Origin: Escherichia phage BEK2
Strand: one strand, 5' to 3'
Length of the DNA: 46,880 nucleotides
Sequence record: MN158206.1
Of this stretch, positions 1-44,895 are shown in pieces. Positions within the stretch are counted from its first letter, which is position 1; each line of letters starts with the position of its first letter. The position numbers and the translations under genes are program-made. A model generated the notes under the pieces. That model saw nothing but the letters and a program-made list of their open reading frames with translations. It made no database searches and was not told where the DNA came from.

Positions 1-507
1 ATGAGCAAAGCAGCATTAAAGATGGGCGAAGGAAATTTCAAGGCGCTCTACAACAAGAAGTATGGCGATATTGCTATGGTGGCAATCAACCGCAAGTACA
101 CGCCTGAGGAAGTTTTCGATTTTGCGGTGAGATACTTCTCTTGGGCTGAAAGTGAGGTAATCAAAGCTATTGAGACGGCGGCTTTCCATGGCGTGGTTAG
201 TGAAAGCCTTGTACACAAACCGCGAGTGTTTACATTAACCGGGCTGGCGCTCTTTATGGGTGTTAACATCAATAGATTCGCTCGATGGCGCACTGAGGCT
301 GGATACTCTGATGTGATGGAATTTATTGATAACGTAATCTACGAGCAGAAGTACCAGCTTGGAGTTGCGGGTATCATCAACTCTACCATCGTTGGTAAAG
401 AGCTTGGTATTGATAAACCGCAGGAGATTAAGATTAGCAACAACTCCACAGCTAATGACGTTGATAGTATGAAGGAAGCACTGGAGTCCGTGATTAGTAA
501 GCTATAG
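1..507 (+). CDS. terminase small subunit (begins at window edge; 5' end unverified)
   Basis: 168-aa ORF immediately upstream of the large terminase and HNH gene; synteny-based call; stop TAG lies inside a degenerate TAGCAC box at 505-519. Confidence 0.5.
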   Translation: MSKAALKMGEGNFKALYNKKYGDIAMVAINRKYTPEEVFDFAVRYFSWAESEVIKAIETAAFHGVVSESLVHKPRVFTLTGLALFMGVNINRFARWRTEAGYSDVMEFIDNVIYEQKYQLGVAGIINSTIVGKELGIDKPQEIKISNNSTANDVDSMKEALESVISKL

Positions 508-547
508 CACTTATTGTTAAAAGAAGAGGCCCAATCAATGAGATAAT
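505..547 (+). promoter_or_regulatory. composite early-type promoter (degenerate box TAGCAC-TTATT-GTTA + -10 GATAAT at +37)
   Basis: box 505-519, -10 542-547, same 37-bp phasing as the other copies; precedes HNH gene. Confidence 0.45.
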
Positions 548-575
548 GGGCCCAACAAACTAGCGAGGTGGCGAT

Positions 576-1088
576 ATGAATTGGCATGATTATTTTGAAT
601 ACAAAGATGGGAAGATTTACTGGAAAGATTACGATAGCGAGAGGCTTGGAAGGAGAAGGATACAGCGAAGATTCATAGGGAAAGAGGTTGGCGGCATTGA
701 TAAAAGCCTAGGGTATGTTAGGGTAAACATGCCTGGTAAAAAATATTGGGTTCATAGAATAATCTGGGAGATGCATAACGGAGTAATACCAGAAGGTATG
801 CAAATTGACCGTATAAATCATGTTAGAAATGTTAATAGGATAGAAAACCTTAGGTTAGTTACAATTCAGGAAAATAGAAAGAATCAGTCAATAAATTCGA
901 GGAATAAGACCGGGGTTACCGGAGTCTGCATAGTATCTAGGACTGGCAAATATGCAGCTCAAATAAAAAAGGATGGAGAGAATATTCACTTGGGATTCTT
1001 TGATAATATTCACGACGCGTCGATTGTCAGGGCGAGGGCTGAATTTATTCTTGGGTATCATAAAAACCACGGGAGGAAAGATGAGTGA
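576..1088 (+). CDS. HNH homing endonuclease with AP2-like DNA-binding domain
   Basis: HNH motif 'YWVHRIIWEMHNG...IDRINHVRNVNRIENLRLVTIQEN' followed by AP2-like 'TGVTGVCIVSRTGKYAAQIKKDG'; 3' end overlaps terL start by 8 nt. Confidence 0.8.
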   Translation: MNWHDYFEYKDGKIYWKDYDSERLGRRRIQRRFIGKEVGGIDKSLGYVRVNMPGKKYWVHRIIWEMHNGVIPEGMQIDRINHVRNVNRIENLRLVTIQENRKNQSINSRNKTGVTGVCIVSRTGKYAAQIKKDGENIHLGFFDNIHDASIVRARAEFILGYHKNHGRKDE

Positions 1089-2652
1089 TTTAATCGTATG
1101 GGATGAGCTGACATACGCAGAAAAGATGGCTATCAAGGCCATCTCTGAGCATAGTTTCGAGGGGTTCTTGCGGTGTTTCTTCCAGATAACTCAGGGCGAG
1201 AGATTCAAAATGAATTGGCATGCGAAGTACCTATGCCGTGTTATAGATGAGATTCTCGAGGGAAAGAGAAAGGATACCATCATAAACGTAGCTCCCGGAT
1301 CAGCCAAAACCGAACTTTTTAGCATTCACTTCCCTGTGTATAGCATGATTAAGATTAAGAAGGTCAGGAATCTTAGTTTGTCGTTCTCTGATTCATTGGT
1401 TAAGCGCAACTCCAAACGCGTCCGTGACCTTATTAAGTCAAAGGAATTTCAGGAGCTCTGGCCTTGCACCTTTGGAACGTGCAGGGATGACGAGATTCAG
1501 GTTCTGGATGAGAATGGCAAAGTTAGGTTTGAGTCTATATCCAAGGCGATGGCAGGACAGGTGACGGGAAGCAGGGGAGGCTACATGACTGACGATTATA
1601 GTGGTTGCATAATGCTTGATGACCCACTAAAGCCTGATGACGCGTTAAGTAATGTAAGAAGAGAGGCTGTCAACATGCTTCTCAAGAACACAATTCGTTC
1701 ACGTCGAGCTAGCTCAGTAAAGGGAAAGGAAACGCCAATACTTTCCGTGCAGCAAAGACTTCATGTTCTGGACACTAGCCACTTCATGGAGTCAGGGCAA
1801 ATGGGCATAAAGTTCGACGTAGTGAAAGTTCCAGCCATAGTCACAGAGGATTACGCCGACACGCTTCCTGATTGGATCAAGCAACAATTTATTGATGATG
1901 TTCTTTCATCACCATTTGTAGAGCGGGATGGGGTTAAGTATTACAGCTACTTTCCGGCAAAGGAGTCAATAGAAGACCTGATGGCCATGTGGGATGCTGA
2001 CCAGTACACGTTCCTTAGTCAGTATCAACAAGAACCAGTAGCACTTGGCGGCAATCTGATTAACGTGGATTGGTTCCAGCGCCTTAGCGATACATTCAGA
2101 CCTCCCGCTAAGTATGATTATCGATTCATCACATGCGATACTGCGATGACTACAAAGAGTTATAGTGACTTCTCTGTACTTCAGTTGTGGGGCTATAAGG
2201 ACGCCAAGATTTACCTGATAGACCAGCGCAGAGGTAAGTGGGAGGCGCCAGAGTTGGAAGCTGAACTGCTGGACTTCGAGAAGAAATCAAGGGCAACCAG
2301 TCAGGCAGATGGCATCCTCCGAAAGATTATCATCGAGAAGAAAGCCTCTGGTATCGGTCTTATTCAATCGGCAGGTAGAGTTATGCGAACACCGATAGAG
2401 CCATACGTGCCGGATAACGACAAGCTAACTAGGGTAATGAGCGCATTGCCACAGATTAAAGCTGGTAACGTAGTTCTTCCCGAGTCAGCGTCGTGGTTAA
2501 ACGGATTGCTTACTGAGGTTGCGGCTTTTACGGCAGATGATTCGCATAAGCACGATGACCAAATTGATACCATGACAATGGCAATCAACCTGGTTCTGAA
2601 CATTGCGGACGATCCTAAGGCGCGACTAATGCGCATAGCGGGAATTAAATAG
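1081..2652 (+). CDS. terminase large subunit
   Basis: ATG 1081 with GGGAGG RBS (track ORF 973 starts inside HNH gene); size and position between terS/HNH and portal; stop TAG embedded in TAGCAC box. Confidence 0.85.
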   Translation: MSDLIVWDELTYAEKMAIKAISEHSFEGFLRCFFQITQGERFKMNWHAKYLCRVIDEILEGKRKDTIINVAPGSAKTELFSIHFPVYSMIKIKKVRNLSLSFSDSLVKRNSKRVRDLIKSKEFQELWPCTFGTCRDDEIQVLDENGKVRFESISKAMAGQVTGSRGGYMTDDYSGCIMLDDPLKPDDALSNVRREAVNMLLKNTIRSRRASSVKGKETPILSVQQRLHVLDTSHFMESGQMGIKFDVVKVPAIVTEDYADTLPDWIKQQFIDDVLSSPFVERDGVKYYSYFPAKESIEDLMAMWDADQYTFLSQYQQEPVALGGNLINVDWFQRLSDTFRPPAKYDYRFITCDTAMTTKSYSDFSVLQLWGYKDAKIYLIDQRRGKWEAPELEAELLDFEKKSRATSQADGILRKIIIEKKASGIGLIQSAGRVMRTPIEPYVPDNDKLTRVMSALPQIKAGNVVLPESASWLNGLLTEVAAFTADDSHKHDDQIDTMTMAINLVLNIADDPKARLMRIAGIK

Positions 2653-2692
2653 CACGAATTGCTAAACATAAAAGCCAGGGATGGCTTATAGT
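2650..2692 (+). promoter_or_regulatory. composite early-type promoter (TAGCACGAATTGCTA + -10 TATAGT)
   Basis: box 2650-2664, -10 2687-2692 (37-bp phasing), spacer contains inverted repeat agcca/tggct. Confidence 0.6.
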
Positions 2693-2727
2693 TACTTCAC
2701 ACAAACGAGATGAGAGGAGATAAACAA

Positions 2728-3111
2728 ATGGGACGCACTTCAAAGGTTGTATATCTTGGAAGCAACACTGGAGAGTGTGGTGGTTTTACAGTAGGAAAGG
2801 AATATAAGGCTTACAATTATAATACTGAATATAATTACATTTCAACTTATGATGATAAAGGTAGCTATCGTCAAATCAAGAACGGAGCATTCCACCACTT
2901 CAAACTCCATGATGAGGATGACCATTTTGTAACTGAGACTGAGTGCGCAGTCATGCAGCCCAGCGAAGATAAAAAACCATCTCTAATATATTGCATAAAC
3001 GGTCATGAAGTTGACATGATTGAGTTTGAAAATGTGCGCCATAAGGTTCTAGAGCTTGATGCTTATGGCGTAAAATGCGACACAATCAAGTTCGAAGTAA
3101 AATTCGAGTAA
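2728..3111 (+). CDS. hypothetical protein (autonomous cargo gene between terL and portal)
   Basis: ATG 2728 with GAGGAG RBS; own promoter upstream and own terminator downstream; no recognisable domain. Confidence 0.6.
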   Translation: MGRTSKVVYLGSNTGECGGFTVGKEYKAYNYNTEYNYISTYDDKGSYRQIKNGAFHHFKLHDEDDHFVTETECAVMQPSEDKKPSLIYCINGHEVDMIEFENVRHKVLELDAYGVKCDTIKFEVKFE

Positions 3112-3132
3112 TCAAAAACTGTGTGATAAACT

Positions 3133-3158
3133 AGCCCCTAAATGGGGCTTTTTTTATT
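3133..3158 (+). terminator. intrinsic terminator
   Basis: hairpin agcccc-taaat-ggggct followed by T7 run. Confidence 0.7.
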
Positions 3159-3168
3159 GGAGAAAAAC

Positions 3169-4437
3169 ATGGTTAAGACAGACAGCTACGCCAATATATT
3201 TCTCGGCGGCAGTGATGGTAGTGAGATTTACGGGAGCTTACAGAATCAGGAACCTACAATTCTGGGTTCGCTTTATGCAAATAATGCCATAGTGCGTAGA
3301 ATTATCGACACAATCCCTGAGACAGCATTAGCGGCAGGATTCCACATTGATGGCATTGATGATGAGCCTGCCTTCTGGTCACGCTGGGATGATCTAGAAA
3401 TGACGCAGAATATTAACGATGCTTGGTCTTGGGCTAGATTATTCGGTGGAGCCGCTATTGTCGCTATCGTTAAGGACAATAGGGCGCTAACAAGTCCTGT
3501 CAGAGAAGGTGCCGAACTTGAAACTGTTAGAGTTTACGACCGCACACAAGTAAAAGTACAAACTCGCGAGGAGAATCCCCGTAACGCACGTTTTGGTAAG
3601 CCACTAACCTATCGCATTACCACAAATGAGAGCGATATGTTCTATGATGTGCATTACAGCAGAATTCACATCATTGACGGAGAGCGAATTCCTAACGTAA
3701 TGCGTCGGCAAAATGACGGCTGGGGCCGCAGCGTTCTATCCAGTGACATTCTTGACTCAATCAAGGATTACACCAACTGCGAACGACTGGCTACGCAACT
3801 ACTGAGAAGAAAGCAGCAAGCAGTGTGGAAAGCCAAAGGTCTGGCTGAGTTGTGTGATGATAGCGAGGGATTTGGTGCCGCAAGGTTGCGCCTAGCACAG
3901 GTTGATAATAATAGCGGAGTTGGTCAGGCGATTGGGATTGATGCAGAATCTGAAGAGTATAGCGTTCTAAACTCTGACATTGGCGGGATTGATGCGTTTC
4001 TGGATAAGAAGTTTGACAGAATCGTTGCTCTGAGCGGTATTCATGAAATTATCCTCAAGAACAAAAACGTTGGCGGCGTGTCATCAAGTCAAAACACTGC
4101 ACTTGAGACATTCCACAAGCTAATTGACCGCAAGCGTAACTCTGAGCTGCTTCCTGTTCTTGAGTTCTTAATTCCGTTCATCGTTAACGTTGACGAATGG
4201 TCGGTTGAGTTTAACCCCTTAGCTCAGGAATCAAGCAAGGACAAAGCGGAGATTCTGGAGAGGAACGTAAACAGCATCGCGACGCTAATTGCATCTGGCG
4301 CTATGGATATTGATGAGGCGAGAGATACATTGCGTACAATCGCTCCAGAGGTTAAGATTAGTGACGGTTCAGTAGAGACAGAGGTGACAATTAGTGAAAC
4401 CAGTAACGACCCGCTGGAAGTATCCGCAGACAATTGA
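3169..4437 (+). CDS. portal protein
   Basis: ATG 3169 after terminator (track start 3142 lies in the hairpin); ~420 aa, follows terL, precedes Mu-F-like head protein. Confidence 0.8.
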   Translation: MVKTDSYANIFLGGSDGSEIYGSLQNQEPTILGSLYANNAIVRRIIDTIPETALAAGFHIDGIDDEPAFWSRWDDLEMTQNINDAWSWARLFGGAAIVAIVKDNRALTSPVREGAELETVRVYDRTQVKVQTREENPRNARFGKPLTYRITTNESDMFYDVHYSRIHIIDGERIPNVMRRQNDGWGRSVLSSDILDSIKDYTNCERLATQLLRRKQQAVWKAKGLAELCDDSEGFGAARLRLAQVDNNSGVGQAIGIDAESEEYSVLNSDIGGIDAFLDKKFDRIVALSGIHEIILKNKNVGGVSSSQNTALETFHKLIDRKRNSELLPVLEFLIPFIVNVDEWSVEFNPLAQESSKDKAEILERNVNSIATLIASGAMDIDEARDTLRTIAPEVKISDGSVETEVTISETSNDPLEVSADN

Positions 4438-10502: not shown

Positions 10503-10545
10503 TAGCACTTTTTGCTAAAGCACTTATCCAATCTTCCTGTATAGT
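10503..10545 (+). promoter_or_regulatory. composite early-type promoter (TAGCACTTTTTGCTA + -10 TATAGT)
   Basis: box 10503-10517, -10 10540-10545, leader 'ctcATCGAAACGAAA'. Confidence 0.6.
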
Positions 10546-10578
10546 TAACTCATCGAAACGAAATGAAGGAATTAAGAA

Positions 10579-20513: not shown

Positions 20514-21458
20514 TTAATACATGTCAGGAAGGTAAGGAAGTGGTGTTGATATTGTTACGTCAGGCCTATTCCCTATCTCGTATCTGACAATCCTTGAACC
20601 GGTTCCTGAGCGAACATAACCATTGCTCATCACGATTCCTTTGTTTCTCAACTCCTTATATGCTGGTATTGCCCTTGTGTTAAATCCACATCTAAGTATT
20701 GGGAAGTAAGAGTCACCAATGTACTGGTTGCTACCTGATAGGTTTATGAATCCAGAAACAACCAATGGCCTTGTGACGGTTGATAAAGTGCAGGCACCAT
20801 TTGAGTTAAATATGTTAAGTCCCGGACCAGGGGTTGGTGCTACCATCTGAAAAATAATCAAGTCCATAGTGACACTTCCTGGGGTATCACCAGTATCTTC
20901 AGTATTTATGTTTGTACATATTAACTGATTGCTCCCATTGTACTCAACTGACACACCGGAGTTGCTCCACTTTCCAAATGGAATTCCATAAATTGGCAGC
21001 GTGTAAGTGTCGGTGAAAGATATACTCTGAGCAAACTTGCACACCAACAACCTGTCAGTGGTGGTTATCGAAGTAAAATCAGTACTATTCGCAACATAAA
21101 TACCCTGGCCAGCCGATGCTCTTAGTACCTCAACAACAGTGCCAGAAAATTGCGTTATACGGTCAGAGTATCCATTCTCGTAACCAATTGATATTGTTCC
21201 GCTTGATTCTGTTGATGAAAATCCATTTATGTAGTAAATCTCAACTCCCCTATCAAGTTCGAATGAGTAGGCGCCATTGTTAGGGATAAGGAACCTTGAC
21301 GCTCCTTCATTGCCCTGAATTGAAAATGTCTTACTAAACCCGCCGCTAGAAACGTTGAAATTGCCAGCGAAATTCAATGCCCGCATCCCTGCGGTAATTG
21401 TCATTGGCTTCCTTCCATCATTGAGGTCTATATAAATACCTTGAGCCATTAATTCCAC
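20514..21458 (-). CDS. putative receptor-binding / tail-tip accessory protein
   Basis: 314 aa Gly/Ser/Thr/Asn-rich beta-type protein co-transcribed downstream of lipoprotein gene, adjacent and convergent to J; functional call is inference. Confidence 0.4.
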
Positions 21459-21679
21459 TCCTTAGAGCCATAATCACTAACAGATCCACCGGAGCCTTTA
21501 ATACCAGCGTAGCGAATATCAACCTCACCAGCAGGAACAACTACACCACCTTTCCACTTAGACACGCACACGCCGTTTGCTTGCGTTGCACACCAACCAT
21601 CCGGGCGAGGACCAGAAGAACAACCAACTGCCATGATTACTGCTGCTGCGATGATTGCTGATTTGATGAAGTTATTCAT
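21449..21679 (-). CDS. lipoprotein, Cor/Llp-like superinfection-exclusion candidate
   Basis: signal peptide + lipobox '[10 protein letters not shown]|SS'; ATG 21679 with AAGGAA RBS; small mature domain with 3 Cys. Confidence 0.65.
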
Positions 21680-21714: not shown

Positions 21715-21757
21715 ATAGTATCGCATCCTTGCGATCAGTGTTTAGCAATTAGTGCTA
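21715..21757 (-). promoter_or_regulatory. composite early-type promoter (box + -10 TACTAT)
   Basis: box 21743-21757 (minus sense TAGCACTAATTGCTA), -10 at 21715-21720, leader 'ctccATCGAAACGAAAT'. Confidence 0.55.
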
Positions 21758-22431
21758 TTCGCCAAAAATACAGCTCTTGCAAATCCACGAGGTGTAAGAC
21801 TGCGAATTACCTTTGTTTTCTTGCTCTTCCCGCCTAGCTTCTTGTGCTGGTCTGAGTATCCATCATTAACGTCAACTGGTGAGGCTTGAGGCCATTTAAA
21901 CCCATTGCCAGACCAAATGCACGTCTTCTTAGGATATGCGTCTCTTGGCTTTATTAGGTCGCTAAAAAACGGGTGTAAATCATCTTCCGGCAAATAGCCT
22001 CCGTATTCGTAAGGGTGAAACGTGTTATCAGGTTTACTCCAGAGCGATGACAGCACGCTGACTGGGTTCTCAATCATGTATGGAACTCCGTATTTTTCAG
22101 CCAGTTTAAAAGCAACCTTGCAAGTCTCTGCCGCCTCAATTTGGAAGTTTTGGTTGGCTAGGCGCTTACGCTCAAAGTGTGCTGCCCCGCTCACGGCTAA
22201 ATCCGTACAGGGCGGGAATGCCATGATAAAATCAGGCTTCACATCAAAATCAAAACTGGAATCTATCCAGGCATTAACGTATGTAATGTTCTCATGCTCA
22301 ACCTTTGCATTTAAGTCACTGTAGCTCCCGTGGTCGGAATCATCAAAGTTGAAGCAGCAGCATGTGTGGCCAGCTTCAGCCCAATCATTTACAGCCAAAC
22401 CAGAACCATCAAATAAAGACCAGATAACCAT
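21742..22431 (-). CDS. DNA methyltransferase (FxGxG / PPC / ENP motifs)
   Basis: 'LFDGSGLA', '[12 protein letters not shown]', 'MIENPV'; class (C5 vs N6) uncertain; C-terminus 'NSTNC' encoded by TAGCAC box. Confidence 0.55.
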
Positions 22432-22460: not shown

Positions 22461-22503
22461 ATTATACTGCACAAAATTTATTGTTCTTTAGCAATTCGTG
22501 CTA
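22461..22503 (-). promoter_or_regulatory. composite early-type promoter (box + -10 TATAAT)
   Basis: box 22489-22503, perfect TATAAT (minus) at 22461-22466. Confidence 0.6.
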
Positions 22504-23172
22504 TTTCTTTTCCAGCAGCAGCTTGATGTCAATGCCGAGATTATTCTCAATCAATCCGGTCAGCGCATCATTCTTTTCTTTAAGAGCGAAGCATTGCGCT
22601 TCATACTTAAATCTTTCCTCCATCTCATTCGAGCGACTAGCCCAACACTGGCGAGCCTCACAAGCCAGCATATCGAGTTTTTCATCGGTATTCTTATCCA
22701 TGAGTAAGATCTCATTTATTCTTTGCTCTGCAACAATGCGCTGGCTCAGGTGTGCATTTTGCGCATTAGCCACACCAAGCATCATTCGAGCCTCTTTTAG
22801 CTCATCAATGCTTACCATCCGGCTGATTACTTCTGCTTGTTTTTTAACTAACGCCTCGAGCTCATGAAGTCGACGGATAACTCTGCGACGAAGAACTACG
22901 CTGTAGCCAGTGATTAGCGTTTCGGTGAGTTCCTTGTTGAGTAAAATCTCAGATGTATAGCCTCGATTATCCGTAAGTACTTGATAATCATCATGACCCA
23001 AATCTGGGGCATCGTTATAATGTAACAATTCATTGATCATTTCCTTTGTGTCGCGAACGACGTGATCATGACGCTTACCTGTCAATTCAGCAATTTCCTT
23101 CGTGCTCATCATGGTTTTTGGCTGTTCTTTGTACGCTTCAATTTTCATTTTAGTCTCTCTTATGCTTTTCAT
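22501..23172 (-). CDS. Rha-family (phage regulatory protein Rha) domain protein with coiled-coil C-terminus
   Basis: 'MSTKEIAELTGKRHDHVVRDTKEM' matches Rha N-terminal domain; start 23172/23148/23112 uncertain. Confidence 0.65.
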   Translation of the reverse strand: MKSIRETKMKIEAYKEQPKTMMSTKEIAELTGKRHDHVVRDTKEMINELLHYNDAPDLGHDDYQVLTDNRGYTSEILLNKELTETLITGYSVVLRRRVIRRLHELEALVKKQAEVISRMVSIDELKEARMMLGVANAQNAHLSQRIVAEQRINEILLMDKNTDEKLDMLACEARQCWASRSNEMEERFKYEAQCFALKEKNDALTGLIENNLGIDIKLLLEKK

Positions 23173-23252: not shown

Positions 23253-23295
23253 AATATACCTAAAGATAGTCAGTTGTCTTTAGCAATTAGTGCTA
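23253..23295 (-). promoter_or_regulatory. composite early-type promoter (box + -10 TATATT)
   Basis: box 23281-23295, -10 (minus) 23253-23258. Confidence 0.5.
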
Positions 23296-23780
23296 TTTAT
23301 CGCCAATTTCACCACAAATCACAGTTACACGTAACCGATGTAACTCGATGTATACAATCTCATTCGCGGAAAATGATATACGCGCCGTTACGCAAATTTA
23401 CGCAATAGTTACATTAAAATATCTATATATATCAACCTTTTACTATTATTATTATTATATATATTACTGTGTATATCATGTAACTACTGTTCTGGAGTGT
23501 TCCGGTTATAATTTTAATATCATGTGGATTTATACAGTATTGTGTGGCAGCCATACCAATGCACCCCCCGCAAGAAACGGTATACACGATATACACGATG
23601 GTTACATTGAGCTATATCTGGGCTGAGATGCCATTTTACGTAACAAGTTGCAATGCCTACACGGAATTACAAGTATTCACGCGTAAGTTTAAATCAACGA
23701 TTGGCAAAACCAATTGGACTGGCTACGGTACCGAATATATAGTTACCTCATCGAAAGCAAGCAACCAGAGAGATACAGAA
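23296..23780. repeat. divergent control region A: iterons + AT-rich microsatellite tract (candidate origin/operator region)
   Basis: GTTAC-AC-GTAAC inverted repeat 23324-23335, TTACGCAA x2 (23386-23404), tandem TATACACGA x2 (23581-23598), (TA)n/(TTA)n tract 23415-23490, shared block 23604-23646. Confidence 0.5.
23714..23743 (+). promoter_or_regulatory. rightward sigma70-like promoter of region A
   Basis: TTGGAC ... TATAGT (23738-23743) followed by leader 'cctcATCGAAAGCAAGCA'. Confidence 0.45.
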
Positions 23781-23975
23781 ATGACCTACTACATTATCAA
23801 AGAGAAAAACAACGCACTGTTCGGCGATTGCTACTTTGGAGGCGAGGCCGGTTACACCACCGATAAGAATGAGGCAGACCGATTCGATACCAAAGAAGAA
23901 GCCAGGGATGTGCTGACTGGTTACTTCACTGAAGAAGATTTGAAGTCTGTTAAAGTAGTTAAGGTCAAGGGGTGA
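23781..23975 (+). CDS. hypothetical protein
   Basis: 64 aa ORF (internal start of track ORF 23544) directly after promoter/leader. Confidence 0.45.
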   Translation: MTYYIIKEKNNALFGDCYFGGEAGYTTDKNEADRFDTKEEARDVLTGYFTEEDLKSVKVVKVKG

Positions 23976-24945: not shown

Positions 24946-24988
24946 TAGCACGAATTGCTAAAACAAGGTGGGATAGCTGAGGTATAGT
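24946..24988 (+). promoter_or_regulatory. composite early-type promoter (TAGCACGAATTGCTA + -10 TATAGT)
   Basis: box 24946-24960, -10 24983-24988. Confidence 0.6.
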
Positions 24989-29140: not shown

Positions 29141-29155
29141 TAGCACGAATTGCTA
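29141..29155 (+). promoter_or_regulatory. orphan TAGCACGAATTGCTA box (no phased -10 for adjacent gene)
   Basis: perfect box between primase terminator and tail-fiber start codon, antisense to both. Confidence 0.4.
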
Positions 29156-29180: not shown

Positions 29181-29202
29181 ATAAAAAACCTCCCGAAGGA
29201 GG
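29181..29202 (-). terminator. intrinsic terminator after primase gene
   Basis: minus sense cctcc-ttcg-ggagg + T6. Confidence 0.65.
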
Positions 29203-30126
29203 TTAGCTATTCAATAAGTCACTTGCCTTATATATCTTCTTCCTGATGCCGCTCTTGAATGAGTATTCATCATTTGGTATTACCACGTCAATACACCTGT
29301 CATCCGCAACGCAAAGCAACTCTCTGTCAAGTTTGCACGCCACTCTCAGCTTTTGGTTTCTAAGCGCGTAAGCAACCATTTCCATGTTGTAACTGGAGTA
29401 GCAAACAAGCACACAGCGGTTGCCAGTAGCAATGTGAACACGATAGCCGTCAATGAGATTATCGACCAGATAAGCGAACTCACCATCCTTAAGGGAACCA
29501 ATAACAGCCACAGACTGGCGAGTGTAATCTTTTGCGGCATAACTAACATCTCCTTCTTCATTGATAAACATTACATTGCACATTTCTTCTGATATACCAT
29601 CACCATAAGCCATGAAGCAAGGTATTGCATGGATTAATTCACCTGATTTTGCTCTACCAACATCAAAGCCAAACTCGCTATAGATTCCCTCGTATATACT
29701 GAGTGGGGTTGATTCTACTCTTTCCGTCCTTCCCATTATCTCTAAGCATCTTTCGTGGTCAATTTGAGCGCCCATTTTGTAGAGCTGGGTTCTTGATGCT
29801 TGCTTGTTTGCCTTGTTGACAACCTCAACCGGGATAAGGTTTAGCCACTCACCGAGAACGTCGATACACTCACTGAATGACTCGCCTCGCAGCTTCTGGA
29901 CCCAGAGAATTCCATCCCCTGAGCCGCACTGGTTGCAGATAATGCCACCATCACCATCTTCGCTAACCTTGTTTGTCCATCTCGCGCGATCGTTTCCACC
30001 GCAATAGATGCATGGCTTGTGCTTCTTGGTCTGGAAAAACTTAGGATCTGCGCCGCAGATGTTTATAAGCGCCTTATCCCACAGTCCGCGCATTCTTGGT
30101 AGAACCTCTTTCTTATCGTAGTGCAT
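29203..30126 (-). CDS. DNA primase (zinc-ribbon + catalytic domain)
   Basis: 'PCIYCGGNDRARW...GGIICNQCGSGDGI' matches primase Zn-ribbon pattern. Confidence 0.65.
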   Translation of the reverse strand: MHYDKKEVLPRMRGLWDKALINICGADPKFFQTKKHKPCIYCGGNDRARWTNKVSEDGDGGIICNQCGSGDGILWVQKLRGESFSECIDVLGEWLNLIPVEVVNKANKQASRTQLYKMGAQIDHERCLEIMGRTERVESTPLSIYEGIYSEFGFDVGRAKSGELIHAIPCFMAYGDGISEEMCNVMFINEEGDVSYAAKDYTRQSVAVIGSLKDGEFAYLVDNLIDGYRVHIATGNRCVLVCYSSYNMEMVAYALRNQKLRVACKLDRELLCVADDRCIDVVIPNDEYSFKSGIRKKIYKASDLLNS

Positions 30127-30208
30127 ATTAATCTATCTCTTAACAAATAAAAAAGGATGTACCTATTATGGCACATCCAATTCTTTACTCTTTAGCTTTT
30201 CGTGCCAA

Positions 30209-30446: not shown

Positions 30447-30932
30447 TCATCCATGAGAAATGTCTTTAGCTTTTCGTGCTGCCTCGTTAGCGGCCTTAAT
30501 CTTGCGCCATGAGCGACACTCTGGCTTGGTGGCTAATTCTGCATCAGTGACCACGCGCAGCATGTGACGTTTTTTGCAGCGCAGGGTTAGAGGCTTGCCA
30601 TTGCCGTCGAATTGCAGATCTGGTCGGCAGAATGTGGCTCTAAAACCTTCCCCGGTTCGTTTGTAGTAGTTGTGCGATAACTGAGCACCACGTGCGGAAA
30701 TCATGCCGCGCTTAAACCATTCTTCTACAGCCTGTGGTGTTACCTTTAGCTGCTTTGCGATATTCGCTTTTGTGCCGAAGAAATCAAGAACTATATCTAG
30801 TCGCGCGCGTAGTCCGGCTCTTACTTCATCTTTTAAAACGTAGTAGCCTGAAGGTCGTTTGCGTTGTTTTTTGTCTTCAGTGCGGATAGTTCCGTTGTTC
30901 CCGTTGATTGTTCGCTTGTCGACTGTATTCAT
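30447..30932 (-). CDS. HTH DNA-binding protein (candidate transcriptional regulator)
   Basis: 'TKANIAKQLKVTPQAVEEWFKRGMIS' helix-turn-helix; first gene of leftward operon; GAGGT RBS. Confidence 0.55.
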   Translation of the reverse strand: MNTVDKRTINGNNGTIRTEDKKQRKRPSGYYVLKDEVRAGLRARLDIVLDFFGTKANIAKQLKVTPQAVEEWFKRGMISARGAQLSHNYYKRTGEGFRATFCRPDLQFDGNGKPLTLRCKKRHMLRVVTDAELATKPECRSWRKIKAANEAARKAKDISHG

Positions 30933-30945: not shown

Positions 30946-30988
30946 TAGCATTTTTTGTTAAAAGTCATTCTGATTTGATGGTAGTATT
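30946..30988 (+). promoter_or_regulatory. degenerate composite promoter (TAGCATTTTTTGTTA + -10 TAGTAT/AGTATT)
   Basis: box 30946-30960, -10 ~30982-30988 at 36-37 bp; precedes helicase. Confidence 0.4.
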
Positions 30989-31033
30989 GTACTCAATTAA
31001 ACGCTACAAGACAATTTTTATAGGAATTTAGAT

Positions 31034-33028: not shown

Positions 33029-33444
33029 AAATTACAGACAAAGTTGACTACATTGAGTTTTACCATGGCCCGGTTAAGTCTTGCCCGAAAGAGGATGACG
33101 AGCAAATCTTTTGCTCTGATTGGGTTAAGTATAACTATCCAGAGATGGTATTTTTCCACTGCGTGAATGAGGGTAAGAAAACCATTGGTCAGGCAAGAAA
33201 AGACCAGGCCAAGGGGCTTCTCAAAGGCGTATCAGACTGTATGTTTCTTATTCCCGAATCTATCCGAGGAAAGTACCCTTTCGGAGCCATAGAGCTAAAG
33301 AGGGCTGGGAAGACGCAGGCTAGTCCGGTCAGCGACGAGCAGAAGTCATTCCTTAAAAGCGTAAGAGAATCAGGAGGTTTTGCCGGGGTAGCCTACGGTC
33401 GCGAGGGTTTTCTAGCGGCGTTTAAAGAAATGATTTCAAAATAG
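33025..33444 (+). CDS. VRR-NUC domain nuclease
   Basis: 'DCMFLIPES...GAIELKR' D..E.K core; coupled to helicase (ATGA overlap). Confidence 0.65.
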   Translation: MKITDKVDYIEFYHGPVKSCPKEDDEQIFCSDWVKYNYPEMVFFHCVNEGKKTIGQARKDQAKGLLKGVSDCMFLIPESIRGKYPFGAIELKRAGKTQASPVSDEQKSFLKSVRESGGFAGVAYGREGFLAAFKEMISK

Positions 33445-33484
33445 CACGAATTGCTAAAGACGTTTCGTTGAGTTGGTGTATTAT
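33442..33484 (+). promoter_or_regulatory. composite early-type promoter (TAGCACGAATTGCTA + -10 TATTAT)
   Basis: box 33442-33456, -10 33479-33484, leader 'ttcATCGAAACGAAACG'. Confidence 0.6.
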
Positions 33485-33522
33485 CTATTCATCGAAACGA
33501 AACGCACAAAGAGAGAAAGAAA

Positions 33523-35782: not shown

Positions 35783-35825
35783 TAGCACTTTTTGCCTAAA
35801 GCATGCCGTAGAAATGCGGCATAAT
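35783..35825 (+). promoter_or_regulatory. composite promoter variant (TAGCACTTTTTGCCTA + -10 CATAAT)
   Basis: box 35783-35798, -10 35820-35825, spacer inverted repeat atgccg/cggcat. Confidence 0.5.
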
Positions 35826-37463: not shown

Positions 37464-37543
37464 GATAATTTCCTTTCTCTTCTTAGTTTATATGGATTAA
37501 TAATAACAAAAGCCCACAAGGGGCTTTTAACAAAAGGTGCTAT

Positions 37544-37879
37544 TTAAGAGAATAACTCGTCGTCCGTCATTGTTCCTATATTCATCATCTCTTTTATGTA
37601 CTTGCTCTCATACCCGCTAAGTGCCTCGAAATTGAAATCAAACGGCCTCTTCAGGCTACCCTTGCTAACAAACTCACCACACTTACCATTAATGTAACCC
37701 GCACTCAACATCTTCGCGCAAAACTCCTTTGAAGCAGCGCTGCAAAATTCCCTATGCGACAACCCGGCGGCTTTGCTAAATCTCTGAGAGTCCTTGTGTT
37801 GGTAGATGAATCGCGCCAAATGCTGCCGTGTGAAATATGAATACGACTCGCAGAACTTAAATATATCTAGCAGGAACAT
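37544..37879 (-). CDS. hypothetical protein
   Basis: 111 aa Cys-containing ORF downstream of ATPase gene. Confidence 0.45.
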   Translation of the reverse strand: MFLLDIFKFCESYSYFTRQHLARFIYQHKDSQRFSKAAGLSHREFCSAASKEFCAKMLSAGYINGKCGEFVSKGSLKRPFDFNFEALSGYESKYIKEMMNIGTMTDDELFS

Positions 37880-39539: not shown

Positions 39540-39893
39540 TTACAGGTATTGCGCCTCAAAATGGTACGTCTGGCAAAGAGTGTAAAATCCAACATCCTCG
39601 CTGCGGTAAAGCTGCCAAGCATTACCATCCTCATCGTAAATGTAACCGGCATTTTGCCCTATCCCGGCATGCATAGATACCTGGTAGCGCTTTCCTTCTT
39701 TAAAGTCTTTTTTAACTCCTGACTTGTGGTTAACCTTTGTGCAGTAAAGCGTCTTAGTCTTGACGTACTTACCGCGCTCTTCGAGGTTAACCCATTTGCC
39801 ATCTTTCTTAATCTGCTCCACACCATCTTTAACGCGAGCTTTGTAGAGTACGTTTTCGTTGCTGATCCAGCTTTTAGTAATCGTAGTGGTCAT
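39540..39893 (-). CDS. hypothetical protein
   Basis: 117 aa ORF with own promoter. Confidence 0.5.
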   Translation of the reverse strand: MTTTITKSWISNENVLYKARVKDGVEQIKKDGKWVNLEERGKYVKTKTLYCTKVNHKSGVKKDFKEGKRYQVSMHAGIGQNAGYIYDEDGNAWQLYRSEDVGFYTLCQTYHFEAQYL

Positions 39894-39929: not shown

Positions 39930-39972
39930 AATATACAGGAAAAGCCCCGAAGGGCTTTAGCAATTAGTGCTA
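39930..39972 (-). promoter_or_regulatory. composite early-type promoter with embedded terminator hairpin
   Basis: box 39958-39972, hairpin aagccc-ttcg-gggctttt in spacer, -10 TATATT 39930-39935, leader 'tctcATCGAAACGAAAC'. Confidence 0.55.
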
Positions 39973-40781: not shown

Positions 40782-40791
40782 ATCTCAATCC

Positions 40792-41262: not shown

Positions 41263-41300
41263 TTTTATCTCCGGTGTGTTCGTTTCGTTTCGATGAAGTA

Positions 41301-41343
41301 ACTATACGCCATCCGTGGCGGTGAGTTTTAGCAATTCGTGCTA
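41301..41343 (-). promoter_or_regulatory. composite early-type promoter (box + -10 TATAGT)
   Basis: box 41329-41343, -10 41301-41306, leader 'cttcATCGAAACGAAACG', spacer inverted repeat cgcca/tggcg. Confidence 0.6.
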
Positions 41344-41633
41344 TTGCGTTCGATGTATGCATTAATTTCTTCAGCAGTTTCCATTGCGGAGCGGAAAGCG
41401 CCTTTTGCGTGGCGAGAATCTCGGAATGACTGGAAAAATTTACGAGCAACGTTTGCGAACATCGCGCCAGTGATACGAGAATCACCGAAATTAGTTTCGA
41501 TTGAGTTACTGATGCCATCACGGAACTCATTCTCAGCCATGAACATCTCAGCCATTTCTGCGGTGGCGAAAAGGTCTGCCAGTGCTTGCATGTTTTCGTG
41601 GTCAGCTTTAGTGAAAAGGTTCATGTTAATCAT
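41328..41633 (-). CDS. hypothetical protein (first gene of leftward early operon)
   Basis: 101 aa; C-terminus 'NSTNC' encoded by box. Confidence 0.5.
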   Translation of the reverse strand: MINMNLFTKADHENMQALADLFATAEMAEMFMAENEFRDGISNSIETNFGDSRITGAMFANVARKFFQSFRDSRHAKGAFRSAMETAEEINAYIERNSTNC

Positions 41634-41670
41634 TTTTGTGTCTCCGTGAGTTCTTCGTTTCGATGGAGTA

Positions 41671-41714
41671 ATAATAGCGAATCACACCCGATCGGTCATT
41701 AGCAAAAAGTGCTA
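41671..41714 (-). promoter_or_regulatory. composite early-type promoter (box TAGCACTTTTTGCTA + -10 TATTAT)
   Basis: box 41700-41714, -10 41671-41676, leader 'ctccATCGAAACGAAGAA'. Confidence 0.55.
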
Positions 41715-42300
41715 TTCGTTAGATTTATGGATTGTTGCAGATATTGCAATGATTCACATAATTATTGCACATACAGCAATATTGCTTCAGATGCAATGAT
41801 GTTTTTGATTGTTGCGAAAAGTGAAATGAAGTGGGGAGTGAGCGAATGAAAGATGGATGGACTACCATACAAGTTGATTTTGATTCTGGCTGGGCCATTT
41901 TCACGCCTACACGTAACGCCAGTAGCGCGATGTAAGCCAAGGCCAATCGTTACGTGAGTTACGCGCAGCTACGCCCGGACTTACACTATAAGTGCTTAAT
42001 ATATATATATATCTTCTTTCTATTATTATTATTAATATTAATATTATTGTATGTAAGTCGTGTAACGTGGGTCCTAGCGATATCTATATGTTTTTTCCTA
42101 TCAGAATACATTATTGCTATTTTATGTGGGATTTAGCCAGTATGGGGCCATTGCACTCATTTGCCTCGTTACACGCACGACACGAAACTACATTGAGCTA
42201 TAGCTGGGCTGGTGTGCCATTTCGCGTAACGACCCCCAAAAGTTACCAAAAATTACACTTGACTACATGTGTAAGTCGGGATATGATGGACTCAACTTAA
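41715..42300. repeat. divergent control region B: ATTGCA iteron array, GTTACG repeats, AT-rich tract, two copies of the shared block (candidate origin)
   Basis: (A/G)TTGC(A/T) about 7 copies 41730-41815; block copies about 41887-41920 and 42190-42232; (TA)n/(TTA)n tract 41995-42055. Confidence 0.5.
42259..42287 (+). promoter_or_regulatory. strong sigma70 promoter (rightward early)
   Basis: -35 TTGACT, 17-bp spacer, -10 TATGAT. Confidence 0.65.
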
Positions 42301-42318
42301 ACGAGAGGAGTGATAGAG

Positions 42319-42798
42319 ATGAACGAGAAGGTAACATTAGGCCAAGTGATTCGTGAGATGGTAAAGGCGGCGCTTAAGTCTGAGGATAAGCAGATCAGCG
42401 TGACACTCAACAAGATTGAGAGCCTTATTGGCGCAGAGGAGGGTGGTCTACATAAGCTTAAGAGCTCATACATCTATAATACAACGGCTCGCATGCCTGA
42501 GTTGAGAGATGCCGGACTGAAGGCGACCCACCATTATGATGAGGATGAGGGTGATAGTGAGTTTGGTGAAACCACTCTGGCTGGGGAAAAGAAGTTAGTT
42601 ATCAAGCTGATTCCTGGAGCTGCAAACATTGGAATCAGGAAGAAGACCAACGACGCGATCAAGGATGAGGCAATCAATGGGTTCAAGGCCAAGATTTCGA
42701 AGGTGATGCCAGACCTCTCTGAGTATGAGGGTGAAGCGCTTGCAGCCGCCATGAAGGCCATTAAGGATTACCGTTTAATTATTGAGGAGATTAAGTAA
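42319..42798 (+). CDS. hypothetical protein (first rightward early gene)
   Basis: ATG 42319 with GAGGAG RBS (track GTG 42310). Confidence 0.55.
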   Translation: MNEKVTLGQVIREMVKAALKSEDKQISVTLNKIESLIGAEEGGLHKLKSSYIYNTTARMPELRDAGLKATHHYDEDEGDSEFGETTLAGEKKLVIKLIPGAANIGIRKKTNDAIKDEAINGFKAKISKVMPDLSEYEGEALAAAMKAIKDYRLIIEEIK

Positions 42799-43322
42799 TG
42801 TTTGACTTTAACGAGGATAAACTGACAGAAGAGCAGGTTATGCAAGTAGCCATGGCAGATAGCCTTCCACCACTACGTGTTGCAATCAGCGCTAACGGGT
42901 ATCGACAGTCAACGGCGTTTTGGGGTTCGATTGATACCTCAGAGGTGTATAGTGGTGATGAGCTTGGTGTACTGATTAAAATCATCAGGAAAATGGGAGT
43001 TAACGGCAAAGGAGTTGTCGGCATTAGGTCTCTATACGAAGGTGCTCGCAAGGTTAAGCCCTTTGAGGGTAGCAATGGAATCATGGCGCGTATTAAGGAT
43101 GAGCTCATCCCAGCTCTAGAGGAAATTAATATCGCTTGCCTAATTGGAGATAAGATTTATGTCCACCCAGCTATCATTGATGAGTACTGGCAACCCAACT
43201 TCAAAACTTACGAAGGTGAGCACCCCAGTAGACTACCACACCACTTGCGATACAGTGACGATGAGATAATAAAGGCGATTCGGTTCTACTGGGAAGCTAA
43301 ATCACTGCTTAGCGGCGGATAG
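42798..43322 (+). CDS. truncated paralog of the 37883..39466 ATPase (N- and C-terminal domains only)
   Basis: 'MFDFNEDKLTEEQVMQVAMADSLPPLRVAISANGYRQS' and 'NGKGVVGIRSLYEGARKVKPFE...CLIGDKIYVHP' match both ends of the 527-aa protein. Confidence 0.6.
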   Translation: MFDFNEDKLTEEQVMQVAMADSLPPLRVAISANGYRQSTAFWGSIDTSEVYSGDELGVLIKIIRKMGVNGKGVVGIRSLYEGARKVKPFEGSNGIMARIKDELIPALEEINIACLIGDKIYVHPAIIDEYWQPNFKTYEGEHPSRLPHHLRYSDDEIIKAIRFYWEAKSLLSGG

Positions 43323-43362
43323 CACGAATTGCTAAAAGGGGATTCATCCTGACTGGTATAAT
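43320..43362 (+). promoter_or_regulatory. composite early-type promoter (TAGCACGAATTGCTA + -10 TATAAT)
   Basis: box 43320-43334, perfect TATAAT 43357-43362. Confidence 0.6.
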
Positions 43363-43516
43363 CCCCACATCAACCACGCGAATGGAAGTTAAGTGACCAT
43401 ATACGAACATAGATTCAGCAGCAGGGGTATTGATATGCTTCTGCACTATATAGACGAAAAATACGCAAAGCTCATGCTTAAGACGCATGGCGGCACAATA
43501 ACGAGGATTAACAAAA

Positions 43517-44149
43517 ATGGCTAAAATTATCATTCTTAACGGACCCGCTTCTATTGGTAAGGACACTATTGGCAACGCGTTATGCTATGATTACCGATGC
43601 ATCAAAACCAGCCTTAAGCGTCCAATGTTTGAAATTGCCGAGTCAATCCTGGGGGTGGAGGCATTCAGTAAGTTCATCACGGCTTATGATGACCGAGATC
43701 AGAAAGAGATGCCTCAGAGCTTCCTTGGTGGCAAGACCTGCCGCGAGTTCATGATCTGGATTAGCGAAACGGTAGTCAAGCCTCTATTTGGCAACCAGCA
43801 ATTCGGTAAGCTGATGAGCGAACATATAAATCTGTGTGATGAAGGATTCACGTTCGTTTGCACTGATGGCGGGTTCACTGATGAAGTCATAAAGCTTGTT
43901 GAAGATGGTCACGATGTTACCGTTGTGCGTCTATTTATGGATGGCAAGACCTTCGCAGGCGATAGTCGTAATTACATCCACATTGAAGAATCTCAGTTCC
44001 ATTACTGCTCGTGGTATCAGGAGTGTGACGTGCATCTAATAAGTGGTGACATTGATGGCGGTGTCCTGGCGGTGGCTGAGGCTTGCGGTATTAGCTCATC
44101 AGTCCCAGAGGTTGATGTTTACGAGTGGGAAGATGGATTGCCCTGGTAA
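43517..44149 (+). CDS. P-loop nucleotide kinase (dNMP-kinase-like)
   Basis: Walker A 'LNGPASIGKDT' resembling T4 gp1 'GVKRSGKDT'. Confidence 0.55.
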   Translation: MAKIIILNGPASIGKDTIGNALCYDYRCIKTSLKRPMFEIAESILGVEAFSKFITAYDDRDQKEMPQSFLGGKTCREFMIWISETVVKPLFGNQQFGKLMSEHINLCDEGFTFVCTDGGFTDEVIKLVEDGHDVTVVRLFMDGKTFAGDSRNYIHIEESQFHYCSWYQECDVHLISGDIDGGVLAVAEACGISSSVPEVDVYEWEDGLPW

Positions 44150-44150
44150 A

Positions 44151-44193
44151 TAGCACTTTTTGCCTAACCCTCTTCGGAGGGTTTTGTTATAGT
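44151..44193 (+). promoter_or_regulatory. composite promoter variant with embedded terminator (TAGCACTTTTTGCCTA, hairpin, -10 TGtTATAGT)
   Basis: box 44151-44166, hairpin ccctc-ttcg-gaggg + T4 (44167-44186), -10 44188-44193, leader 'tcccATCGAAAGCAAAC'. Confidence 0.55.
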
Positions 44194-44231
44194 TATCCCA
44201 TCGAAAGCAAACAACCAAACGGAGCTACAAA

Positions 44232-44324
44232 ATGATTTCTTTACTGATGATTATCCCTGCTGTTATCGCCCTGGGTCTGATGGTTAGTGCTGGTGAGTTC
44301 TACGTCCCAGTCAACAAGAAATAG
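44232..44324 (+). CDS. hypothetical small hydrophobic peptide (30 aa)
   Basis: 'MISLLMIIPAVIALGLMVSAG...' single TM; own promoter; stop in next box. Confidence 0.3.
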   Translation: MISLLMIIPAVIALGLMVSAGEFYVPVNKK

Positions 44325-44363
44325 CACGAAATGATAAGCCGCTCCGGCGGGTTTTGTTATAGT
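44322..44363 (+). promoter_or_regulatory. degenerate composite promoter (TAGCACGAAATGATA + hairpin + -10 TGtTATAGT)
   Basis: -10 44358-44363 at 36 bp. Confidence 0.4.
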
Positions 44364-44392
44364 TAGTTCACACCAAGCGAGAGGAAAGAGAA

Positions 44393-44485
44393 GTGAAGCA
44401 ATACCCATCAAGCAATCACCATAACGGTCACATCATGCAGTTCTATCGCCACAATCTGAAGACTAATGGAGTATTTGGAAAATGA
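44393..44485 (+). CDS. hypothetical small protein (30 aa)
   Basis: GTG with GAGAGGAAAGAG RBS; ATGA overlap with next gene. Confidence 0.3.
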
Positions 44486-44721
44486 TTACAATTAACCTGT
44501 CAGATAAAGACGCAGAAATGCTAAAGAGTATTATTATGAAACCAATGTACTCCACGCTCTCATTCGAGCAGATGCGAGTAGTGAAAGAAGTTGGCACACA
44601 GATTAATAATCAGCAGTTCGACGTTAGCGACTTCGATTCATCTCGTCAATACGAGTCGCTTAGCGTCAATGCTGCGTACATTGATAAAGCAGTATGGGAA
44701 AAGGCGAGAAATAAAAAATGA
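44482..44721 (+). CDS. hypothetical protein
   Basis: 79 aa ORF. Confidence 0.5.
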
Positions 44722-44855
44722 TTTACATCCACACGTACTACACTGGTAAGTTTAATAGCGTTAAGCATGCTCGAGTTCACGATAGCTACGATAGTGCAAA
44801 GGCTCAATGGTTGGTTCTTGGTGGTGATATTAATTCATATAGAGTCGCTGAATAG
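44718..44855 (+). CDS. hypothetical small protein (45 aa)
   Basis: ATGA overlap upstream; stop TAG inside box. Confidence 0.35.
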   Translation: MIYIHTYYTGKFNSVKHARVHDSYDSAKAQWLVLGGDINSYRVAE

Positions 44856-44895
44856 CACTAATTGCTAAAACAGTATTGGGGTAATTTGTTATAGT
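44853..44895 (+). promoter_or_regulatory. composite early-type promoter (TAGCACTAATTGCTA + -10 TGtTATAGT)
   Basis: box 44853-44867, -10 44890-44895, leader 'ccccATCGAAACGAACGAGG'. Confidence 0.6.

Follow-up and report, generated by a model that had tools for sequence, protein, structure and literature searches.

The classical T phages include T1, whose family, the Drexlerviridae, turns up often in phage collections and as a contaminant of fermentations; to our knowledge, the transcription program of this family has never been worked out. Phage Rtp reportedly carries '10 conserved inverted repeats' upstream of its genes, which the 2006 abstract by Wietzorrek and colleagues is said to assign to Rtp52, and E. 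coli reportedly has, according to the Rtp paper, only one such repeat. A re-annotation of phage TLS in 2024 located a 21-nt repeat, aaATAGCACnnnTTGnTAAAA, at 21 places, oriented along transcription and about 76 bases 5' of start codons, and divided the copies into AAA, TTT, and GAA subgroups (PMC11447400). That study found similar repeats in T1, Rtp, and Rogue1, listed only three intergenic sigma70-like promoters and reported no polymerase or sigma factor gene for TLS, and suggested stoperators, enhancer-binding sites, or upstream promoter (UP) elements as functions of the repeat, which remained guesswork for its authors (PMC11447400). The T1 'enhancers' of Roberts et al. 2004 are mentioned here as they are cited there (PMC11447400). 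We followed up a first-pass annotation of Escherichia phage BEK2 (MN158206.1; Drexlerviridae, Braunvirinae), in which an inverted repeat, TAGCA-N5-TGCTA (hereafter the box), precedes genes throughout a stretch of 46,880 bp; this whole stretch is referred to as the window, and all positions are window coordinates.

Comparison of the box with the T1-like repeat revealed no essential difference. The analysis covered five genomes, namely the window, Rtp, T1, Klebsiella phage Sweeny, and phage Motto, which represent Braunvirinae, Tunavirinae, Webervirus, and Tempevirinae. The consensus derived from 74 sites in these genomes, aAATAGCACtaaTTGcTAAAac, matched the published one, and orientation and virus family were the same. 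The distance to the start codons (71–88 nt after the box start in the window, about 76 nt in TLS) and the copy number (20 in the window, 18–21 in TLS) agreed as well, and the window, from a Drexlerviridae phage, encodes a homologue of Rtp52 and T1 gp23. The window thus adds one further genome with the element. The first-pass annotation could match the box to no described promoter class, but the element had already been published for T1-like phages (TLS, PMC11447400; also T1, Rtp, and Rogue1), and its novelty is therefore low. What was left to contribute is the mechanism, together with features missing from the accessible literature, rather than the discovery of the element itself. The accessible text on the T1-like repeat is silent on fixed 22-bp phasing to a -10 element, on C-1/A+1, on spacer hairpins, and on the layout of the regulator promoter; a full-text literature search for the box and leader strings returned no paper, and literature searches for transcription start sites or RNA-seq of Drexlerviridae returned nothing relevant.

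We propose, with a probability of roughly 55%, that the box is the site of a dimeric phage helix-turn-helix regulator, most likely the product of 30447–30932, which would activate sigma70 promoters lacking a -35 element from about -42. The anatomy of the module, its phasing, its conservation in the family, the Cro-like fold of the regulator, and the layout of the regulator promoter can be read from the sequences; binding of the regulator to the box, and activation by that binding, are what we infer from them.

Exact TAGCA-N5-TGCTA occurred 13 times in the window against 0.02 expected from dinucleotide-preserving shuffles, and copies with at most one mismatch occurred 21 times against 1.87 expected from dinucleotide shuffles, so that the motif is far more common here than in shuffled sequence; equal frequency there was among the outcomes that the first-pass annotation had named as refuting. 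The box total was 20, 13 of them exact; all 18 positions listed by that annotation do carry a box, and two more, at 37528 (-) and 45557 (+), had been overlooked. Read in its orientation, the box is TAGCAC-N3-TTGCTA, and the whole module can be written as aaaTAGCAC(gaa/taa/ttt)TTGCTAaaac, a 22-nt spacer, a -10 hexamer TATAGT, TATAAT, or TATTAT, the leader TTAcc-CATCGAAACGAA, a Shine-Dalgarno sequence, and ATG. Its half-sites lie 10 bp apart around a free, A/T-rich center (GAA, TAA, TTT, or AAA), the pattern expected of a helix-turn-helix dimer site. Information content over the 74 sites was highest at GCAC and GC; A-tracts flank the box, in which TTG is conserved. The commonest variant of the promoter-proximal half was TTGTTA, others being TTGCCT, ATGATA, and AAGCTA, and the degenerate boxes at 505, 30946, 35783, 44151, and 44322 all deviate in this half. 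The TAG of the box serves as the stop codon of the upstream gene at 505–507, 2650–2652, 33442–33444, 43320–43322, and 44853–44855. At several other sites, a TAA stop lies inside the AAA flank just 5' of the box, and the intergenic modules are extremely compact. The 20 boxes and their promoters are as follows.

505..547, + strand: composite promoter with box TAGCACTTATTGTTA at 505–519 and weak -10 GATAAT at 542–547, upstream of the homing-endonuclease and large-terminase genes; the TAG is the small-terminase stop.
2650..2692, + strand: composite promoter with box TAGCACGAATTGCTA at 2650–2664, -10 TATAGT at 2687–2692, and predicted start A2699; the TAG is the large-terminase stop.
10503..10545, + strand: composite promoter with box at 10503–10517 and -10 TATAGT at 10540–10545, in the tail-gene region; a terminator precedes the promoter.
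21715..21757, - strand: composite promoter with box at 21757–21743 and -10 TACTAT at 21720–21715, serving 21679..21449 and the following genes.
22461..22503, - strand: composite promoter with box at 22503–22489 and -10 TATAAT at 22466–22461, serving the methyltransferase-like gene 22431..21742.
23253..23295, - strand: composite promoter with box at 23295–23281 and -10 TATATT at 23258–23253, before the Rha-like gene 23172..22501 and with an atypical leader.
24946..24988, + strand: composite promoter with box at 24946–24960 and -10 TATAGT at 24983–24988, after the exonuclease gene.
29141..29155, + strand: orphan box reading TAGCACGAATTGCTA, with no phased -10; the flanking primase and tail-fiber genes are both on the - strand.
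30946..30987, + strand: helicase promoter with degenerate box TAGCATTTTTTGTTA at 30946–30960 and -10 TAGTAT at 30982–30987; on the other strand, the box also lies in the leader of the regulator gene.
33442..33484, + strand: composite promoter with box at 33442–33456 and -10 TATTAT at 33479–33484; the TAG is the stop of the VRR-NUC gene.
35783..35825, + strand: composite promoter with box TAGCACTTTTTGCCT at 35783–35797, a spacer hairpin, and -10 CATAAT at 35820–35825.
37500..37542, - strand: composite promoter (one of the two overlooked) with box TAGCACCTTTTGTTA at 37542–37528, a terminator-like spacer hairpin, and -10 TATTAT at 37505–37500.
39930..39972, - strand: composite promoter with box at 39972–39958, a terminator-like spacer hairpin, and -10 TATATT at 39935–39930, before an operon of gp07-like, DUF3987, and gp10-like genes.
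41301..41343, - strand: composite promoter with box at 41343–41329 and -10 TATAGT at 41306–41301.
41671..41714, - strand: composite promoter with box at 41714–41700, -10 TATTAT at 41676–41671, and a 23-bp spacer.
43320..43362, + strand: composite promoter with box at 43320–43334 and -10 TATAAT at 43357–43362; a hairpin spans the -10.
44151..44193, + strand: composite promoter with box TAGCACTTTTTGCCT at 44151–44165, a terminator hairpin at 44166–44183 in the spacer, and extended -10 TGtTATAGT (hexamer at 44188–44193).
44322..44363, + strand: composite promoter with degenerate box TAGCACGAAATGATA at 44322–44336, a spacer hairpin, -10 TATAGT at 44358–44363, and a 21-bp spacer.
44853..44895, + strand: composite promoter with box at 44853–44867 and -10 TATAGT at 44890–44895; the hairpin GGGGTAA...TTACCCC spans the -10.
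45557..45599, + strand: composite promoter (the other one overlooked) with box TAGCACTAAAAGCTA at 45557–45571 and -10 TATAAT at 45594–45599.

Weak box candidates within genes (3893, 6252, 11726, 34519, and 42880) lacked a phased -10 or lay in conserved coding sequence and were attributed to chance, as was another enriched dyad, CAATC-N11-GATTG, which occurred in unrelated coding contexts.

The boxes lie in short intergenic gaps. Nineteen of the 20 share the orientation of the downstream gene, and at the same number a hexamer of the TAnnnT type begins 36–38 nt past the first base of the box on that gene's strand, as the first-pass annotation had claimed for 17 of its 18 sites; the forms departing from TAnnnT were GATAAT at 505 and CATAAT at 35783. 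The phasing was tested by scoring the best -10 anywhere from 22 to 55 nt past the box start, a range of 34 nt, with no preset offset. The best -10 fell at exactly offset 37 for 17 of 25 candidates in the window, 17/22 in Rtp, 12/21 in T1, 11/17 in Sweeny, and 13/22 in Motto, and the same phased module thus emerged from the scan of related Drexlerviridae that the first-pass annotation had called for. TTGCTA is separated from the -10 by 21–23 bp, and the earlier argument that it is unusable as a -35, a distance of 22 bp being too long, holds.

Base conservation was calculated from 80 boxes with at most one mismatch in the five genomes, with the downstream sequence left unconditioned. A-11 and T-7, the bases flipped out by sigma70 region 2, were each present in 89% of the sites, followed by A+1 (81%), G-14 (75%), C-1 (75%), and T-12 (74%), and TG preceded the -10 hexamer in 38% of the promoters. 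The best match to TTGACA located 16–18 bp from the -10 reached merely 2–3 of 6 positions, and a conserved A-tract, AAAAC, occupies that place. Canonical sigma70 promoters were not enriched in the window in either of two counts (35 against 40.4 expected and 9 against 14.0 expected). These features support reading the element downstream of the box as a putative sigma70-type promoter without a -35. Transcription is predicted to start at the conserved A of CATCGAAACGA, which follows the -10 by 7 nt; with that start, the box would span -49 to -35 and its dyad center would fall at about -42, close to the -41.5 proposed earlier. A conserved -10 with A-11/T-7 and a poor -35 are properties of class II activator-dependent promoters, and a site centered at -42 would suit this class if transcription starts at that A.

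The predicted transcripts begin with a CA-rich sequence, (C)ATCGAAACGAA, at about +1 to +12, directly before the Shine-Dalgarno sequence (e.g., 10552–10562, 33491–33501, and 44902–44912), and C-1/A+1 at this leader was kept across the five genomes. A second leader type (..TGAAGTGAAaCAAcCAATCAGGAG) was seen in T1, Sweeny, and Motto, where it accompanies hairpins spanning the -10. A -10 and leader module with no box, TATAGTTACCTCATCGAAAGCA, lies at 23737–23759 (+) inside the open reading frame 23544–23975, about 30 nt before the Shine-Dalgarno sequence that serves the exonuclease gene (23979). This module could be a box-independent internal promoter, or else it may indicate selection on the leader as such.

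TAGCA-N5-TGCTA was the most frequent dyad of 5 + 5 bases in every genome, with 13 exact copies in the window, 10 in Rtp, 10 in T1, 7 in Sweeny, and 6 in Motto, and the whole module, including phasing and leader, was conserved in all five. The Rtp count equals the number of inverted repeats reported for that phage in 2006. In IMG/VR, the extended box was found almost exclusively on contigs of 41–52 kb, usually in several copies per contig. Close relatives of the window phage include Rtp and the BASEL phages AugustePiccard and JeanPiccard. The window itself is 100% identical to Escherichia phage BEK3 (MN158207.1; 46,880 against 46,884 bp), with record coordinates shifted by +3 or +4 beyond about 23.3 kb owing to indels at about 23.3–23.6 kb.

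The candidate regulator and its promoter occupy the following positions.

30447..30932, - strand: candidate box-binding regulator of 161 amino acids, homologue of Rtp52 and T1 gp23.
30986..31014, - strand: canonical sigma70 promoter of the regulator gene, TTGTCT-17-TACAAT.

The 161-residue product was 96% identical to Rtp52 and 53% identical to T1 gp23. The GenBank record of Rtp lists rtp52 as a putative regulator of transcription, places a helix-turn-helix at residues 53–74, and notes similarity to T1 gp23; the homologue is annotated as a putative regulator in T1 too. The window protein belongs to PHROG 2856 and matched Pfam P22_Cro with an E-value of 5e-6, below the curated cut-off; the P22_Cro/YdaS helix-turn-helix match covers residues 48–72, within a Cro/YdaS-type helix-turn-helix at about residues 48–75. 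Homologues were present in 824 phage records, essentially all from Drexlerviridae. An AlphaFold2 model (predicted local distance difference test score 86.5) has a helical core, and its best PDB matches in Foldseek were the all-alpha Cro proteins of Xfaso1, N15, and P22, with a target template modeling score of about 0.7 and weak E-values of 0.02–1.4; the complex of the lambda cI N-terminal domain with sigma region 4 ranked 22nd with a weak score. The model thus predicts an all-alpha, Cro-like helix-turn-helix fold. Among the three regulator candidates named in the first-pass annotation, this one gained from the comparison by being the homologue of a protein annotated as a putative regulator in Rtp. 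The Rha-like protein 22501–23172 was dropped as a box binder, because Rtp, T1, Sweeny, and Motto all carry boxes and lack it; the third, 37544–37879, is considered below.

The regulator promoter, TTGTCT-17-TACAAT, has a -10 that overlaps the -10 of the helicase box promoter on the opposite strand, and the box lies between the predicted start of the regulator transcript and its ribosome-binding site. Equivalent promoters were found in T1 (TTGAAT-17-TATAAT) and Sweeny (TTGTCA-16-TATAAT), and the Rtp region is near-identical; in Motto, the -10 is TATCAT, and the aligned stretch ended before the -35 position. Terminator-like hairpins follow the regulator operon (30155–30178, -) and the primase gene (29187–29204, -). 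The primase gene has no box promoter of its own and would therefore be transcribed by read-through from the regulator's promoter.

Under the proposed mechanism, host polymerase alone would fire a few canonical promoters at the start of infection, including the regulator promoter at 31014–30986. The regulator would then turn on about 19 box promoters, which serve early-looking, replication, lysis, and structural genes. At each of them, a dimer bound at -49 to -35 would take over -35 recognition and recruit or stabilize host RNA polymerase, a class II-type activation like that by lambda cI at OR2 on PRM. Because the box lies in its own leader and the -10 elements overlap, the regulator would also damp its own promoter. 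The simplest reading of the helicase/regulator locus is a switch, in which the regulator would be made first, after which the helicase and the other box promoters would be turned on and the regulator's own promoter damped.

A broader form of this model is possible, although we hold it only tentatively: a single Cro-like master activator would run almost the whole T1-like program at about 20 promoters, with two or three host-only promoters starting the cascade. This would resemble sigma appropriation without MotA/AsiA, and each module of about 85 nt would hold an operator, promoter, and leader together with a stop codon and a hairpin acting as terminator or RNA end. A candidate for such host-only firing is a second canonical promoter in the window, which by its sequence may need host polymerase alone.

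42259..42287, + strand: canonical sigma70-type promoter with no box, TTGACT-17-TATGAT, before the first rightward small-gene cluster.

Several observations weigh against activation by the Rtp52/gp23 homologue. With TG before the -10 in 38% and G-14 in 75%, some of the promoters could fire without an activator, and a single box for all gene classes provides no obvious temporal order. The recognition helix is only partly conserved (residues 66, 68, 70, 71, and 73 vary), whereas the box does not vary within the family. The best-conserved segment, ahead of the recognition helix, is instead a predicted disordered N-terminal arm (residues 5–27, DKRTxNGNNGTxRxxDKKxRKRP), which weakens the argument that the recognition helix reads an invariant box; the arm could be a DNA-contacting arm or a polymerase-binding motif. 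Even the farthest homologues (those of Vibrio phage Vc1, at 49% identity) group with Motto, whose box is the same, and so offered no comparison of regulator-box covariation. The proteins 37544–37879 and 39540–39893 are equally conserved, with a helix-turn-helix in the T1 record and weak HHpred similarity. Finally, the sequence features are compatible with repression as well as with activation.

The main competing explanations differ in the sign of the effect or in the protein involved. A phage repressor could use the box to block otherwise constitutive promoters (extended -10, A-tracts) or upstream read-through, like the L5 stoperators, an idea raised by the TLS authors (PMC11447400). The boxes do lie at the 3' ends of upstream genes and are oriented with transcription, two of them, the one in the regulator leader and the orphan past the primase terminator, resemble roadblock sites, and TGn or G-14 is frequent. 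We nevertheless consider repression unlikely: a roadblock requires no fixed 22-bp phasing to the -10, the box overlaps neither the -10 nor the start site, and these are virulent phages for which shutting nearly all transcription units, structural ones included, would have no obvious lytic use. With strict -10 phasing and no lysogeny genes in the records of annotated relatives, the boxes fall outside the L5-type stoperator class. Similarly doubtful is binding by another protein, 37544–37879, 39540–39893, or a host factor, for which the box might still be a promoter-proximal activator site. Both small proteins are conserved in all five genomes, are annotated with a helix-turn-helix in T1, and show weak HHpred similarity to S. 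epidermidis RipR, and the variable recognition helix of the gp23-type protein beside an invariant box also suits this explanation. However, neither has a Pfam match or a box before its own coding sequence in an autoregulatory layout, whereas the gp23-type gene combines a Cro-like fold with a box in its own leader. Against a host factor speaks the single such repeat reported for E. coli.

The remaining explanations require no dedicated DNA-binding regulator of this kind. Direct reading of the box by host RNA polymerase, either as an UP-element-like site for the C-terminal domain of the alpha subunit or through TTGCTA as a displaced -35, draws on the A-tract flanks, the conserved TTG, and the mention of UP elements by the TLS authors (PMC11447400). 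The invariant GCAC/GC and the dyad symmetry are, however, alien to an UP element, and an orphan box lacking any -10 is conserved in three genomes, so that we judge direct reading improbable; the module does not belong to the UP element class, since its highest information content is at GCAC and GC, and the displaced -35 was rejected on spacing, TTGCTA lying 22 bp from the -10 and outside the reach of sigma70. The box can also be folded in RNA, as UAGCA-N5-UGCUA, which would give the upstream message a 3'-terminal stem of 5 bp capped by a pentaloop; there it might act as a boxB-like antiterminator site or, with the hairpin that follows, as a stabilizing or processing signal. The commonest variant, TTGTTA, retains a G-U pair, and a second, covarying hairpin follows at most sites. 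Yet the stem of the box itself never covaries and its sequence is invariant, the loop varies freely among GAA, TAA, TTT, and AAA, the variants TTGCCT, ATGATA, and AAGCTA break the stem, and the fixed spacing to a -10 with conserved A-11/T-7 is a DNA-level constraint, which makes a role in RNA very unlikely. TAGCAC-N3-TTGCTA further resembles the sigma54 -24/-12 consensus, TGGCAC-N5-TTGCA. Because the essential GG is replaced by AG and the spacing between the elements is, by inspection, 2 bp too short, the box was not assigned to this class; sigma54 would also leave the phased -10 and C-1/A+1 unexplained, and we give it almost no credence.

The fold analysis covered 74 modules from the five genomes, each from the box to +3, with random 37-mers from the same genomes and shuffles as controls. 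The minimum free energy was -5 kcal/mol or lower in 59 of the 74 modules, with a mean of -9.8 kcal/mol against -4.9 kcal/mol for random 37-mers (Mann-Whitney p = 1.5e-15; mean z-score against shuffles -2.9). The stem sequences vary from site to site and covary (e.g., 44868–44901, 43335–43368, 35798–35822, 39957–39936 (-), and 37527–37506 (-)), and such hairpins occur likewise in Rtp, T1, Sweeny, and Motto. Of the earlier description of the spacer as fixed in length and variable in sequence, the length therefore stood (22 bp, range 21–23), whereas the sequence is not free and usually forms a covarying hairpin. The 3' ends of the hairpins formed two clusters: one at -12, where the hairpin ends directly against the -10 and a T-run or the -10 itself often provides the U-rich tract, and one at -3 to +3, where the -10 lies inside the loop and the stem finishes at the predicted start. 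Because the spacer hairpins lie outside the transcript of their own promoter, their target would have to be either the DNA itself or RNA reading through from the upstream gene; termination, protection or processing of RNA 3' ends, and a DNA cruciform are candidate roles. The accessible literature yielded no mention of the covarying spacer hairpins or of the reverse-oriented orphan box.

The orphan box at 29141–29155 is the lone exception to the phasing (1/20). It lies just past the primase terminator (29204–29187, -) and 24 nt before the tail-fiber ATG, and it points away from the downstream gene, an arrangement kept in Rtp (33763) and T1 (34903). Its conservation without any -10 points to an autonomous protein-binding site and not to part of a polymerase-recognition sequence; the orphan may also be a roadblock or an insulator. 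Elsewhere, about 600 bp at 41715–42310 contain no annotated gene. This stretch separates divergent gene clusters, is AT-rich, and carries short ATTGCA/TGCAAT repeats and palindromic TATTAATA runs, with the promoter at 42259–42287 at its right edge. Judged from gene layout, without alignment, its counterparts appear to be the non-coding ends of the T1 record, which would make it a possible packaging-site or origin region.

The repeat can now be stated as a concrete, testable model. In it, a sigma70 promoter that lacks a -35 has its operator at -42 and a predicted start, the regulator gene is named, and the promoter of that gene would be self-limiting. If true, the model would explain how about 75 genes are expressed with almost no canonical promoters and would provide a compact orthogonal activator-promoter set for engineering.

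Comparison with characterized phage systems placed the window system beside several of them. Like the L5 stoperators, the boxes are numerous, short, oriented sites in short intergenic gaps along transcription, whereas stoperators, which belong to a temperate phage whose prophage repressor binds them, are asymmetric 13-mers that keep no set distance from a -10. Mor and C of Mu and Ogr of P2 are likewise small phage activators acting on an imperfect dyad at or upstream of the -35 region of promoters without a -35, but they belong to other protein families (Pfam gave no Mor or Ogr match) and serve middle or late genes only. With T4 MotA/AsiA, the window system would share replacement of -35 recognition by a phage factor at many sigma70 -10 promoters, and its box contains a TGCT core; the MotA box, in contrast, is not a dyad and has its center at -30, MotA differs in fold and depends on AsiA, and no search for MotA/AsiA homologues was made in the window. 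With lambda cI at OR2 and PRM, the window system differs in using one site type for about 20 promoters in a virulent genome, with no tandem operators or lysogeny, and in an operator of 15 bp against 17 bp in lambda, and its contact with sigma is putative. Common to both would be a helix-turn-helix dimer site at about -42, a weak or absent -35, and an activator gene under the same type of site, and the core fold predicted for the window regulator matches Cro and the N-terminal domain of cI.

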